A stretch of DNA of 64,000 nt from Dictyostelium discoideum (GCA_000004695.1 CM000150.2:4384001-4448000), one strand, 5' to 3'; shown: positions 31,136-39,000, numbered from the stretch's first letter. A program made the numbers and translations. The notes: a model not told the origin generated them from the sequence alone.

Positions 31136-31868
31136 TTAATATAACATTTGACCCATTGAATCATAAAAACAAATCATTTTACAAAATTTATCAGAATTTG
31201 AAGCAGCTTTAATAAATTCTTCTTTATTCATTCCTTTTTTTTTATTTGACATATTTTCAGCTGAACAAATTGAAAATACATAATTTGTTACACCACTATA
31301 ATCCATACCCAATGATGTACCACATGCAACTGCAACTCCAATTAATTTTTCAACTTCATCAACTTCAAGATGACCACTTTGATCTTTATCAAATAAATCA
31401 AATAAAAGACTTAATTTTTCAACAACTGGTGCTTTTGTCATAATATATAATGATGTTACAAATTCTTTAAAATCTAATATTCCATTCTAATTAATTAATT
31501 AAATAAGTAATTTTTTTTTTTTTTTTTTTTTTTTTTTTTTAAATTTTAAATTAATATTATTAATAATTAATTATTATTTATTATCTAATATTATTTTATT
31601 AATTTTTTTTTTTTTTTTAAAAAAAATAACATACACAATCAGTATCAAATAATTTAAATAATTGTATTAATAAATCTTTATCCCAATCTCTGAAACGACA
31701 ATAAAAGAAATCTATAAATTCAGATTCTGTAAAACCAGATTTTTTATCTTTTGATGAGTATTCATTATAATCTTTACTAAGTTTATCAATTTGATCTTTT
31801 GTATAATTTGTTTTTTTAATTAATTCATTAATTTCTTCTTTTGATAATTTTGTATTTCCAGCTCCCAT
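31136..31868 (-). CDS. N-myristoylated EF-hand calcium-binding protein (NCS/calcineurin-B-like, ~195 aa)
   Basis: Two exons: 31868..31635 and 31486..31136. MGAGNTK myristoylation motif. EF-hand loops DTDC|NGILDFKE (split by the intron) and DKDQSGHLEVDE. Confidence 0.75.
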
Positions 31869-32313
31869 TTTTTTAAATTTTTTAAATTAAAAAAAAGTTA
31901 TATATATATATATATATATTTATTATTTATAAAAAAAAAATAAATAAATAATTATTAAAAAAAAAAAAAAAAAAAAAAAAAATATCTTTTTTATAAATTA
32001 AATTAAAAAAAAAAAAAAAAAAAAAAAAAAAAAAAAAAAAAAAAAAAATCTCTTTTCTATTTTTTTCTTTGGTTTTGGTTGAATGTCACAAAAAAATCAA
32101 TGTCACACACAATTTCAAATAATTTCCGCATAATTTCATTTTTTTTTATTTATTTTTTATTTCATTTTATTTTTTTTTTTATGTAAGTTTCAAAAGATCT
32201 AAATATGTGTTGGGGAATCCTTTTTTTTTTTTTTTTTTTTTTTTTTGTTTATGGTAAAAACATCACAAATGTGGCTAATAGTGATTAAAATAAAATTTAT
32301 TATTTTTGTTAAT

Positions 32314-33227
32314 TTATTCTAATGAAGTTGCAACATAATCTGCTCTTAAATTATAAGCTCTTGCATTTCTCCATACATAGAAACGAGCTTTAAATCCTTT
32401 GGTTGTTACATTAATTGCTTGAACATCAACACGAGTTTGTTGGTAAACATTTGTACCAGTTGCATCAGCAGATGTTGTATCGATATGACCTAATGTAATT
32501 GCAATCAATGGAATTGATTTAAATTCGACTGGGAATAAAACATCAACAAGAATTTCACGAGCACCAGTATTTGTAGTACTATTTAAAACAGTATCAGCAC
32601 CTGGTGAAATATTTCTACCAACTTGAGTGAAACTGTGTTGTTCAATTTCAGCATATAATTCAAATCTTAATGAAATATGAGTATTCCAAGTCAATGGACA
32701 AATAGCAATTGAACGAGCTCTAATTGGAGTATCAAAGAAATGAGTGGTAACTGTATTACGATCACTATTAGCAGCAATAGAACTACCATTTCTATACTCT
32801 TTCCAATTAACACCATCAAGAGTATAACGAACTTTAAATGATGTTACCCATTGATCCACTATTATTTATTCAAATTATTAAATTAATAAATTTTATTCAA
32901 AAAAAAAAAAAAAAAAAAAAAAAAAAAAAAAAAAAAAAAAAAAAAAAAAAAAAAAAAAAAAAAAAAAAAAATTAAAAACTTACAATCACCACGACCTTGA
33001 ATTGCTAAAGAAACATAGGTTTTTGGATTTTCAGAACCAGCCATAATGTATTGATTAGTATCGAGAATAGCAGCACACCAAGCTTCTGAACCACCTTGAG
33101 TATTTGGAGCACCATTTTTAAAATTTAAAACACTATTAAATTGAGTGTGAACACCATTAAAATTAGTTGAAGTTCTAAGATTAACAAGAGAGTTATAAAC
33201 TACTGGAACTAAATTTGCTGTTGACAT
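32314..33227 (-). CDS. discoidin-I-family lectin, copy 1 (N-terminal discoidin/F5-8 type C domain + C-terminal H-type lectin domain)
   Basis: Two exons: 33227..32984 and 32858..32314 (phase 1; junction reads RGD-L-DQW). Strong similarity to discoidin I throughout: [92 protein letters not shown]. The ORF-track M at 32859 is a GTG inside the exon, not a start codon. Confidence 0.85.
32899..32971. repeat. A73 homopolymer (T73 on the gene strand) making up most of discoidin copy-1 intron 1
   Basis: Direct reading. Intron 32983..32859 is GTAAGTTTTTAAT + T73 + a short AT-rich tail ending AATAG. Confidence 0.95.
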
Positions 33228-33240
33228 TTTTTTTTTTTTT

Positions 33241-35469: not shown

Positions 35470-36060
35470 TTTTTTTTTTTTTTTTTAATAAAAGTTAATT
35501 TAATACAATGTTTTTAAATTTGATTATAAATGAAATTTATGTTTTGTTGATATTAAATAAAAAAAAAATTTCCTCTTTTTATAGTTTTTTTTTATTATTA
35601 AAATAATAAAAAATAAAAAATTAAAATAAAAATAAATAATTATTTCAGAATCTTGGGAATTTTTAGATTTTAGTTATAATAAATTTTTTTTTTTTTTTTT
35701 TAAATATCTTTGTAATAATTTTTTTTGGAAAGATAAGAAAATGGGAAAATATAAAAAAATTTAGTTCATTTAAAAATGTCGGTCATTTCTTTGTGTTATG
35801 ACATTTTTTTGAGATTTTATTTTTTCAAAAAAAACAAAAAAAAAAAAAAAAAATATCTTTTCTATTTTTGCAAATGATTTTTTTTTTTTTTTTTTTGGGG
35901 TGAAGGGGTAGGCTTTTTTTTGCATTTTAAGATTTTTTGGTCAAAAGTTTATAGTAAAAAAAATTAAATAAAAAATAAAAAAAAAAAAAAAAAATAATAA
36001 TATTAACTAAAAAAAAAAAAATTTCCTAAGATTTTGAAATAAAATAATTATCTTTTTTTT
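35470..36060 (-). promoter_or_regulatory. conserved upstream/promoter region of discoidin copy 2
   Basis: Alignable to 33241-33790. Carries a G-rich insertion GGGGTGAAGGGGTAGG (35893-35915) that copy 1 lacks, and the inverted 34-bp segment (35766-35798). Confidence 0.4.
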
Positions 36061-36068
36061 TTTTTTCC

Positions 36069-39000
36069 TCAATTTATTTTTATAATATTAAAATAAGTTT
36101 TTATAATTTTAATAACATTATCCCATTCAAATAGTTTTATCTTATTTAATAGTTTTTCAAAATAAAATTGAATTTTTTCAATACCATTATTATTATTATT
36201 ATTATTATTATTATTATTATTATTATTATTATTATTATTATTATTATTATTATTATTATTATTATTATTATTATTATTATTATTATTATTATTATTATTA
36301 TTATTATTATTATTATTATTATTATTATTATTATTATTATTATTGTTATTTATAAAATATTTTAATTGTGATATTACTAAATTAATTAAAATTAAAAATG
36401 AATTTAAACTACCAATCCATTTATAAAATGAATTTTGAATTCTTTTAATTGAATTATTTTGAATTATTACTTTATCATAGAATGAAATACCAAAATTTAA
36501 ATATTCTTGAATTGATTCATTTACAACTTTAATTGATTTTCTAATTAAATTAAATTGATCAATTTCAAATTTATTTGGAAATAAATTAAAATAAATATTT
36601 GATTTTTTATTGATATTATCATTTATAAATTGATCATTAATTTCTTTATTTTCTTCATTTAATTTATTTGTAAATTCAATTATATTTAAATTTAAATTAA
36701 TATTAACATCAATTGGTTTATAAATTCTATCACCAATGTATTCATTTAATAATAATAAATTTTCATTTTCATTTTCATTTTCATTTTCATTTTCATTTTC
36801 ATTTTCATTTTCATTTTCATTTTCATTTTCATTTTCATTTTCATTTTCATTTTCATTTTCATTTTCATCTTTAATTTCATTACATTGATTTAATTGATCA
36901 TTATAAAATTGTAATAATTTATTATTTGAATTAATTAATGTTGATAGCCTTTTAATTGAAATTGATTTAGTATGATAAATTGGTTTATATTCTTTTTCTT
37001 TATTTCCTAATAATTCAATTAATTCTTTATATTTAGCTGTTGTTGTTGTTGATAATTGTTGATGATTATTTTTCATTATTTTAAATGATAAACATAATGA
37101 TAATATTATAATTTGATCAAGAAAATTTAATGGAATTTCTAATGGTTCAATTTCACCATGTGATAATTTATCTCTAATCCTTGGACCATCAATATAAATT
37201 AATAAATCTAATAACATTGATATTAATGATTCACCAATATCAATTACAAGTTGATTATTAAATAAAATTTCTTTTTCTTCTTCTTCTTTTTCTTCTTTTT
37301 CTTCTTCTTTTTCTTCATTATTATTATTATTAAATTTAAAATATTTTGGATTTTCATATTTTGAATAATTTTTATTTGAAGTTGGAATTTGTAAATGTTT
37401 CTCTTCACTGTATGATGATGATGATGATGTAGTTGATGATGGCGATTCATTTGAAAATACACAAGTTGATAATAATAATGTATTTGAAATGAATAAATCC
37501 AAAGTTGTATAAAAACTAATATAATCTGCTTTTAAAAATTTATCAGGTAAATTATTTAATTTAACAAAATTTAATCTAAGTGAATGTTCCAATTGTGGTA
37601 ATAATAATACTAATGAATAAAATATATTATAACCATCATTATCTTCATTATCATTAATTGATTTAAAATAATAATTAAATGCTTCTAACCATAAATTAAT
37701 TCTACCTGGTACTATAAATTTTGAATTTTTTAATATTTCAAAAATTTCATCTTTATAATTTAATAATATTAATTTATTATTATTATTATTATTATTATTA
37801 TTATTATTATTATTATTATTATTATTATTATTATTATTATTATTATTATTATTATTATTATTATTATTATTATTATTATTATTATTTTTATTATTATTAT
37901 TATTATTATCAAAATTTGAAAACTTTTTTTTTAAACTAATTATTGGTCTAATTGAACCATTATTATTATTATTATTATTATTATTATTATTATTATTATT
38001 ATTATTATTATTATTATTATTATTATTATTATTATTATTATTATTATTATTATTATTATTATTATTATTATTATTATTATTATTTTTAAAAGATTTGAAA
38101 ATAATTGAAATTTTAAAAATTAAATGAATAATATAAATTAATAAAGATAAATTTAATTCATTTGGTGATATGAATCCATGCCAAATTATATTACGTAAAT
38201 TTAAACCAATTGGTGGTCCAATTAAAACTTTTAATAATGAAATTATTGGTAATCCTAAAACTATTAATAAATTATCATCATCTAATAAATCACGTAACAT
38301 TCTACCGAAAATTGGTGGTTTTTTATCAACAATAACTAATTTAAAAAAAATTATATCACCCAACATTCTTTCTAATGTTGATAATATTATTGAATATTCT
38401 AATGTAATATTATCATTAAAATTATTTTCATTTATTTTATCTCTTAAAGAAATTAATGTATTTTTAAATAATAATACCTTTATTATTTTTAAAAAATAAA
38501 AAAAAAGAAATATTAATATCAATAATAATATTAATAATAATAAAAAAATAAAAAATAATAAAAAAGAAAAAAAAACTTACATTTGGTATAATATTATTTA
38601 AATTTAAATCATCAAACCATTTATATGATTCATTTAATAATTGTGATTTATTATTATTATCATTAAATTCTTTATAATATTTTAAGAATAATAAATTTGA
38701 TAAAATTCTAAGACGTATTGAGTTTATTTTAAAAAATTCTAGTACATTTTGATGATCATTTTTATCTTTTTCTAAAGTATTATTATTATTATTATTATTA
38801 TTATTATTATTATTATTATTATTATTATTATTATTATTATTATTATTATTATTATTATTATTATTATTATTATTATTATTATTATTATTATTATTATTAT
38901 TATTATTATTATTATTATTATTATTTTCATTTATAGATTTATTAAAAAATAACCAGTTATTTAAAGAATTATTTATTATGTTATCATTTAAATAAAATGA

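Follow-up and report, generated by a model that had tools for sequence, protein, structure and literature searches.

In a 64-kb window of chromosome 1 of Dictyostelium discoideum AX4 (the window being the whole stretch of DNA that was analyzed), two nearly identical genes for a discoidin-like lectin lie between cbpJ, a gene for an EF-hand protein, and a gene with a DUF4209 domain. The two lectin genes belong to a tandem segmental duplication, whose breakpoints lie inside the two neighboring genes and whose internal joint is marked by a truncated piece of each. A tract of about 1 kb around the lectin coding sequence is far more alike between the copies than the DNA on either side of it, the joint is shared with a related isolate, and close relatives carry one, two or three lectin copies, one of the single copies being a recombinant of both. 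The history that would account for these facts is an old tandem duplication followed by gene conversion and unequal crossing-over, and we put its probability at roughly 0.85.

Two head-to-tail units and the joint between them

A sequence-only reading of this DNA had described two colinear head-to-tail units with boundaries at 31330, 33975, 33976 and 36408. Self-BLAST of the window and a global alignment of the two segments bear this out, and the boundaries were correct within about 10 nucleotides (nt). The features of the duplication are as follows.

31331-33982, duplication unit copy 1 ('B'), ~2.65 kb (self-BLAST and global alignment)
33983-36414, duplication unit copy 2 ('A'), ~2.43 kb (self-BLAST and global alignment)
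32231-33899 and 34484-36182, plus/plus self-BLAST match, 89.7% over 1726 nt
31643-31982 and 34023-34351, plus/plus self-BLAST match, 79.7%
31357-31403 and 33993-34039, plus/plus self-BLAST match, 91%
33922-33982 and 36354-36414, plus/plus self-BLAST match, 88.7%
32314-33227, minus strand, discoidin-like lectin gene copy 1 ('B', cbpJ-proximal), XP_646620, 262 amino acids (exact protein match); exon 1 32984-33227, intron 32859-32983, exon 2 32314-32858 including the stop codon
34564-35469, minus strand, discoidin-like lectin gene copy 2 ('A', DUF4209-proximal), XP_646621, 262 amino acids (exact protein match); exon 1 35226-35469, intron 35109-35225, exon 2 34564-35108 including the stop codon
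33976-33992, duplication joint, where cbpJ exon-2 sequence runs into DUF4209 3' sequence (read from the alignments)
33790-33982, minus strand, DUF4209 pseudogene fragment, last ~60 codons (translation; tblastn, 82% over 39 amino acids; alignment to DUF4209 genes)
33983-34243, minus strand, cbpJ pseudogene fragment, 5' part (alignment and translation)

Beyond these four colinear blocks, self-BLAST detected no further similar sequence within the window. The order of the parts is the same in both copies, many insertions and deletions (indels) separate their flanks, and the copies abut in the manner of a tandem duplication, the end of copy 1 at 33982 adjoining the start of copy 2 at ~33983-33993. 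The four genes all lie on the minus strand and are arranged, in gene orientation, in the order of DUF4209 gene, lectin copy 2, joint, lectin copy 1 and cbpJ. An independent long-read assembly, L001, gives the identical arrangement with 100% identity over the joint.

The proximal breakpoint falls in cbpJ exon 2 at ~31331-31345 (codons ...EKLIGVAV...), and the distal one at ~36414, roughly 60 non-repeat codons before the stop of the DUF4209 gene (~115 codons if the Asn run is counted). In the alignments, the breakpoint sequences are ...GAAAAATTAATTGGAGTTGCAGTT... in cbpJ, ...TATAAATGGATTGGTAGTTTAAATTC... in the DUF4209 gene and ...GGATTAAAGTGGTTGTTTTAAATTC... at the AX4 joint. The two parental sequences have AAAT..ATTGG.AGTT in common at 13 of 16 positions, an imperfect microhomology (AAATTAATTGG-AGTT in cbpJ against AAATGGATTGGTAGTT in the DUF4209 gene). 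Breakpoints inside so short and imperfect a match suggest that the original exchange was probably an illegitimate recombination, or a template switch, between chromatids that had misaligned.

Truncated and decayed fragments are found at the internal joint only; the outer cbpJ and DUF4209 genes are full and intact, so that each unit keeps one intact flanking gene, in line with the sequence-only reading. It had also called the DUF4209 part of copy 1 decayed, and this fragment indeed contains three in-frame stops, has lost its own stop codon and is without the poly-Asn (AAT)n tract. The further proposal that this repeat (given there as (ATT)n) had collapsed is plausible, since relatives' DUF4209 genes show either an Asn run or an alignment gap at this place and the joint fragment of a sister lineage keeps a short (AAT)n. 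The cbpJ part of copy 2 is decayed as well: its ATG is kept at 34241-34243 and begins a 17-codon open reading frame (ORF), which is followed by several stops and frameshifts. The internal deletion at a microhomology that had been noted in this part is real; its size, put at ~235 bp, is ~256 nt by alignment offsets. It is flanked by TATCAAATAA direct repeats and removes, besides the entire 148-nt intron, ~17 nt from exon 1 and ~85 nt from exon 2; since it overshoots the intron and is bounded by a direct repeat, a deletion by slippage or recombination is indicated. The non-transcribed region upstream of cbpJ was co-duplicated (31871-31982 and 34244-34351). No ATG-initiated ORF of at least 20 amino acids was found by ORF scan in 33780-34270, and hence no intact ORF at 33790-34260, where the junction fragments had been placed; ORFs at the joint should not be annotated as genes.

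Uneven divergence of the two copies

The identity between copy 1 and copy 2 in AX4 depends strongly on the part of the unit compared.

32286-33314 in copy 1, partner ~34536-35554 in copy 2, homogenized tract
Exon 1, 99.2%; exon 2, 99.1%
Intron, 96.6%
Upstream of the ATG, -1 to -83, 97.5%
Next 110 nt upstream, 86.6%; remaining promoter, 80.4%
3' flank 20-80 nt past the stop codon, 82.4%; remaining lectin-cbpJ spacer, 73.7%
cbpJ piece, 81.6%; DUF4209 piece, 84.7%

The homogenized tract (~1.0 kb) extends from ~85 nt before the ATG, through the two exons and the intron between them, to ~28 nt beyond the stop codon. Within it, the divergence K is 0.008-0.035, intron included, compared with 0.15-0.32 for the flanking non-coding DNA and the pseudogene pieces. 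The exons had been described as ~99% identical with two amino acid changes, which agrees with the values above and with a count of five synonymous differences (in copy 1 at 32392, 32401, 32428, 32560 and 32704) and two missense changes (R18K and E48K). The earlier alternative of "purifying selection or gene conversion" can be narrowed: the evidence favors gene conversion acting on top of purifying selection in keeping the lectin copies alike. Purifying selection is indicated by a low ratio of non-synonymous to synonymous divergence (dN/dS) of ~0.05-0.13 between lineages, and the lectin intron is only 50-75% identical between species. Since the intron and synonymous sites are so alike between the copies although selection on the protein cannot protect them, conversion rather than selection alone is suggested. 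The neutral sites (intron, synonymous positions and untranslated region) are homogenized together, and divergence jumps at the tract edges. The synonymous divergence (dS) between paralogues within a genome is 0.028 in AX4, 0.064 in L008 and 0.011 in L002/L007 (labels of related isolates, see below), compared with 0.10-0.13 between positional orthologues of AX4 and L008 and 0.19-0.20 between those of AX4 and L002. Paralogues are thus closer than positional orthologues in three independent lineages even though the duplication appears older than their split, which argues for concerted evolution.

The two missense changes have a separate origin. R18K (35417) and E48K (35328) of AX4 copy 2 are both G-to-A on the coding strand, and G is found at both sites in 12 of the 12 other tabulated copies, including copy A of the near-identical L001, in which both lectin proteins are identical. 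The D. citrinum B copies likewise retain R18 and E48, and E48 lies within a GSEAW motif that is identical in all 14 other aligned copies. When AX4 and L001 were compared over ~19 kb, the unambiguous substitutions outside simple repeats (35417, 35328, 29075, 28670 and 25115) were all G:C in L001 and A:T in AX4. Because all other tabulated copies carry G at both sites and the substitutions run one way from G:C to A:T, the changes are likely to be recent and on the AX4 side, and R18K and E48K are best read as AX4-specific mutations rather than as accumulated divergence of the paralogues. The L001 assembly may, as we speculate, be AX2, and the bias may presumably be explained by the chemical mutagenesis history of AX3/AX4; an AT-biased spontaneous spectrum would look alike.

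One further difference, absent from the first description of the duplication, lies in the promoter of copy 2.

35765-35799 in copy 2 and 33533-33568 in copy 1, inverted promoter block, 35-36 nt (minus-strand self-BLAST match and orientation survey)

The block holds a GC island, AAATGTCGGTCATTT, that is conserved within the AT-rich promoter, and its edges consist of short inverted A7T/AT7 runs. The copy-1 orientation was found in every element-bearing copy of L002/L007, L004 and L008 and in one near-match in L009; the inversion is present in copy 2 of AX4 and L001. The inverted block could be a cis-regulatory element with flipped orientation.

Age of the duplication and copy number in relatives

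The syntenic locus (Vps16, DUF4209 gene, lectin gene or genes, cbpJ, a THOC3-like WD40 gene and Hsp70) was taken from eight related-isolate assemblies. These long-read assemblies probably belong to the project of Holland et al., PNAS 2025 (PMC12745789). The relatedness to AX4, given as Vps16 identity, and the number of lectin copies between the DUF4209 gene and cbpJ are listed below.

AX4, two lectin copies
L001, Vps16 identical, two lectin copies
L008, Vps16 ~97%, two lectin copies
L004, Vps16 ~97%, one lectin copy
L005 ('D. cf. discoideum' isolate), Vps16 94.6%, one lectin copy
L002/L007, Vps16 92.8%, three lectin copies
D. citrinum (L006, L009), Vps16 89-90%, two lectin copies, the second very divergent
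D. dimigraforme (L003), Vps16 88.5%, one lectin copy

Dating of the duplication by comparison with other strains and species had been suggested from the sequence alone, and the comparison indicates an old event with later variation in copy number. The 64-74-nt cbpJ fragment kept in the L008 spacer is 93.8% identical to the AX4 joint fragment and 83.8% to L008's own cbpJ. When the two fragments were aligned on their own, they had disabling derived changes in common: GGTTTTACAGAATC to GGTTTTTAAGAAT (in another notation, ACAGAATC to TAAGAAT), an inserted T giving ATT-TAA, and an inserted A. At both joints of L002 the cbpJ breakpoint sequence ATGAAGTTGAAAAATTAATT is kept, followed by a DUF4209 3' fragment with a short residual (AAT)n. 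The joint chimera is dead in every lineage examined (stops occur within 18 codons in AX4) and is being eroded by deletion, ~420 nt more being gone in L008 and most of the cbpJ part in L002. Disabling mutations held in common in the joint pseudogene argue that the duplication preceded the lineage splits, and it would then predate the deepest split sampled within the discoideum clade. The flank K of ~0.17-0.23 is near the AX4-L002 dS (~0.2) and below the AX4-citrinum dS (0.37), which would place the event, as a rough date, later than the split from D. citrinum and no later than the basal split of the discoideum clade.

Several observations weigh against this dating and against a single origin. 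The date sets K of AT-rich non-coding DNA beside synonymous dS, and the two rates need not match. The distal promoters do not sort cleanly into A-type and B-type across lineages, that of L002_A being 67-73% identical to everything and that of L008_A equally near to AX4_A and AX4_B, so that the case for a single origin leans mainly on the joint sequences, which are themselves AT-rich and short, at 40-130 nt. A tandem pair is present in D. citrinum as well; the second copy there is much more diverged (79% in exon 1, ~60% in the intron), and no trace of cbpJ or DUF4209 was recognizable in the inter-copy spacer, unfiltered BLAST and 1/-1 scoring giving only AT-rich noise; this pair may go back either to the same event or to an older, separate one.

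Despite its close relationship to L008, L004 has a single lectin copy. In the distal promoter, L004 agrees at 98% with L008 copy A and at 83% with copy B. In the 3' flank the order is reversed, with 98% identity to copy B and 65% to copy A, and within the gene, exon 1 has A-like informative sites and the 3' end of exon 2 has B-like ones. Because the A and B flanks of L008 are far more diverged from each other than L004 is from L008, L004 is the product of a deletion and not a relic from before the duplication. The middle copy of L002/L007 is a hybrid of the opposite kind: its promoter is B-type, at 98% identity to copy C, and its 3' flank is A-type, at 96% to that of copy A. The two joints of this locus are nearly identical. 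Copy number thus varies between close genomes, and the single copy left by the deletion combines parts of both copies, as expected of unequal crossing-over (non-allelic homologous recombination); the three-copy locus of L002/L007 is the reciprocal kind of product.

The L002/L007 middle copy is split in exon 1 by a ~6.6-kb insertion (L002 12226-18819, corresponding to about 1491-8084 in L007), which encodes gag-like zinc knuckle, protease, reverse transcriptase, RNase H and integrase domains, a set that identifies it as a long terminal repeat (LTR) retrotransposon. A 7-nt overlap of the matches flanking the insertion may represent a target-site duplication, and the public annotation joins lectin exon 1 to the retrotransposon as one 1903-amino-acid "gene". 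In L005 the sole lectin copy (10001-10876) contains two in-frame stops in exon 2, and its upstream region is truncated, with only ~160 nt from the DUF4209 stop to the lectin ATG; the lectin gene appears to be dispensable or lost in this lineage.

We propose that a single ancestral tandem duplication of ~2.6 kb arose through illegitimate (microhomology-level) exchange between misaligned chromatids, which would have joined cbpJ exon 2 to the 3' end of the DUF4209 gene. A second complete lectin gene with its promoter would thereby have been placed between the two neighbors, and one chimeric joint created, in which the cbpJ promoter and 5' half were fused to the DUF4209 3' tail. The functionless joint has decayed by stops, frameshifts, the 256-nt deletion and loss of the Asn repeat, and both lectin genes are under purifying selection. 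Interlocus gene conversion would repeatedly homogenize the ~1-kb tract, which begins shortly before the ATG and ends shortly after the stop codon, and the same homology would drive unequal crossing-over, so that close relatives have lost a copy by deletion, kept two or gained a third by triplication. Of this history, the sequences show the anatomy, the conversion tract, the shared joint, the variation in copy number and the recombinant nature of the single copy, whereas the timing and the molecular mechanism of the first exchange are inferred.

Four other explanations were considered and rejected. Young duplications arising independently in AX4, L008 and L002 would give paralogue likeness without conversion, and the 13-of-16 microhomology shared by cbpJ and the DUF4209 gene could be favored as a breakpoint and used repeatedly; copy number also changes fast at this locus. 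The AX4 flanks are nevertheless 15-30% diverged, far above the core and as much as between lineages, and the AX4 and L008 cbpJ fragments resemble each other more than the parent gene and have stop-creating mutations in common, which makes recurrent duplication very unlikely. Purifying selection alone, keeping the coding sequence ~99% identical while the non-coding flanks drift, would fit the low dN/dS and the fact that the most divergent parts are non-coding. We consider it highly improbable, because synonymous sites and the intron are unprotected by such selection and yet differ so little beside a K of ~0.2 in the adjacent non-coding DNA, and because paralogues are closer than orthologues in three lineages despite the common joint pseudogene.

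The remaining two explanations concern the structure itself. The absence of the cbpJ intron from the fragment could suggest a processed (retrotransposed) pseudogene beside a separately duplicated lectin gene; this is extremely improbable, since the missing segment exceeds the intron on both sides and has the TATCAAATAA direct repeat at its edges, the region upstream of cbpJ was co-duplicated, the fragment is colinear with the unit, and no exact exon-exon junction, poly(A) tail or target-site duplications are present. Nothing specific speaks for an assembly artefact, in which one gene is represented twice or two alleles are placed in tandem, apart from the AT-rich and homopolymer-filled nature of the region. 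The copies differ by many flank indels, the independent long-read assembly L001 is identical, other isolates show related two- and three-copy arrangements, and D. discoideum is haploid (PMC12745789), which counts against two alleles; the chance of an artefact is practically negligible. The old tandem duplication with later conversion and unequal crossing-over remains our preferred reading.

Related lectins, known systems and neighboring genes

Both lectin copies have a single intron after codon 81, and their proteins combine the discoidin domain and H-type lectin domain of discoidin-type lectins (Pfam, both above gathering scores: F5_F8_type_C PF00754, E = 2.8e-22, residues 38-149; H_lectin PF09458, E = 6.7e-15, residues 187-259). 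The database name of both XP_646620 and XP_646621 is "galactose-binding domain-containing protein". The description of the pair as discoidin-I-family genes did not hold: the lectins are 57-59% identical to the cluster containing DIS1A/DIS1B/DIS1D and 262 rather than 253 amino acids long, which places them outside discoidin I proper as unnamed discoidin-like paralogues (~59% identical). Discoidin I (dscA/C/D; 253 amino acids) lies on an 8.48-Mb contig, which we infer to be chromosome 2, whereas the window lectins are on a 4.92-Mb contig. Like the window lectins, the discoidin I genes form a small family, and members that lie side by side, such as XP_644559 and XP_644560, are nearly identical. 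In the 1980s, Poole and Firtel reportedly described a tandem linkage of two discoidin I genes, together with rearrangements in their vicinity. The discoidin I members are ~97% identical to each other (preprint), and the window lectin protein has been termed "of unknown function" (preprint).

Human alpha-globin genes HBA1 and HBA2 are the textbook case of concerted evolution of young tandem duplicates. They resemble the present locus in having a homogenized coding core and diverged flanks, in undergoing conversion and unequal crossing-over, and in the deletion and triplicated chromosomes that correspond to the one-, two- and three-copy states here. The differences are that the present locus is found in a haploid social amoeba, that its tract is only ~1 kb, and that its breakpoints lie inside two neighboring genes, so that two pseudogene fragments mark the joint and the event can be traced across lineages. 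As in chimeric-junction tandem duplications, the cbpJ promoter and 5' part are fused to a DUF4209 3' part with the parents intact; unlike chimeric-junction genes, the chimera here is dead in every lineage examined and is being erased by deletions.

Literature searches (including UniProt accessions) found no description of this particular duplication. The locus is a newly described, unusually well-resolved example of a known process and of modest interest; no new biological question is opened by the locus alone. It can serve as a teaching-grade example, with a dated tandem duplication, both breakpoints marked by fragments, a sharply bounded conversion tract, and deletion and triplication products in sister isolates. 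In practice, XP_646620 and XP_646621 amount to two doses of a single gene, and their near-identity calls for paralogue-aware knock-outs, RNA-seq mapping and proteomics.

Further discoidin-like sequences were observed around the locus in relatives. In D. citrinum and D. dimigraforme, two additional paralogues lie between cbpJ and the THOC3-like WD40 gene (L003 15007-17611; L006 14389-18416; L009 14246-18190), one of 259 amino acids on the opposite strand and one of 261 amino acids, both 64-67% identical to the window protein; discoideum-clade loci have merely a ~0.4-0.5-kb spacer there, and no D. discoideum member was found in the 90% clusters of these paralogues. The B copy of D. citrinum L006 is annotated as truncated (165 amino acids). 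In the three-copy isolate L007, a fragment downstream of the Hsp70 gene (18789-19168) is ~60% identical to lectin residues 97-240. In D. dimigraforme, ~3.2 kb separate the single lectin gene from cbpJ (L003 10876-14127); this segment has an annotated 137-amino-acid minus-strand ORF and showed no similarity to lectin, cbpJ or DUF4209.

Functional lectin copies range from zero to four among close relatives (none in L005, one in L004, two in AX4 and L008, and two intact plus one transposon-broken in L002), and the paralogues in the interval total four in D. citrinum L009 and three in D. dimigraforme. It is conceivable, though unlikely, that the interval from the DUF4209 gene to the THOC3-like WD40 gene is a birth-and-death hotspot for cytosolic discoidin-like lectins, with turnover by fluctuating selection on dosage or specificity and not by neutral churn. 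If this were true, the selection might concern, for example, the detection of glycans on bacterial surfaces, a role recently reported for the classical discoidins, and gene conversion would keep the two-dose allele uniform.

The two genes that flank the duplication are as follows.

31136-31868, minus strand, cbpJ (calcium-binding protein J, NCS-1/frequenin-related EF-hand protein, 194 amino acids), intact (exact protein match XP_646619/Q55C62; tblastn coordinates; Pfam EF-hand); exon 1 31635-31868, intron 31487-31634, exon 2 31136-31486 including the stop codon (tblastn)
36069-39230, minus strand, DUF4209-domain gene, ~1010 amino acids, intact, rich in poly-Asn and (Glu-Asn)n repeats (ORF; Pfam DUF4209, E = 2.4e-30; sister-assembly gene model)

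Searches over 30.0-37.5 kb gave no match to Rfam at gathering thresholds and no transfer RNA (tRNA) in a tRNA scan, so that no RNA gene accounts for the conserved blocks. In the DUF4209 gene, poly-Asn is encoded by (AAT)n tracts of great length and (Glu-Asn)n by an (ATTTTC)n repeat of 18 units (repeat regions 36186-36346, 36759-36866 and 37775-38100), and the annotated length of the gene ranges from 776 to 1076 amino acids across assemblies, apparently as a result of changes in repeat length.

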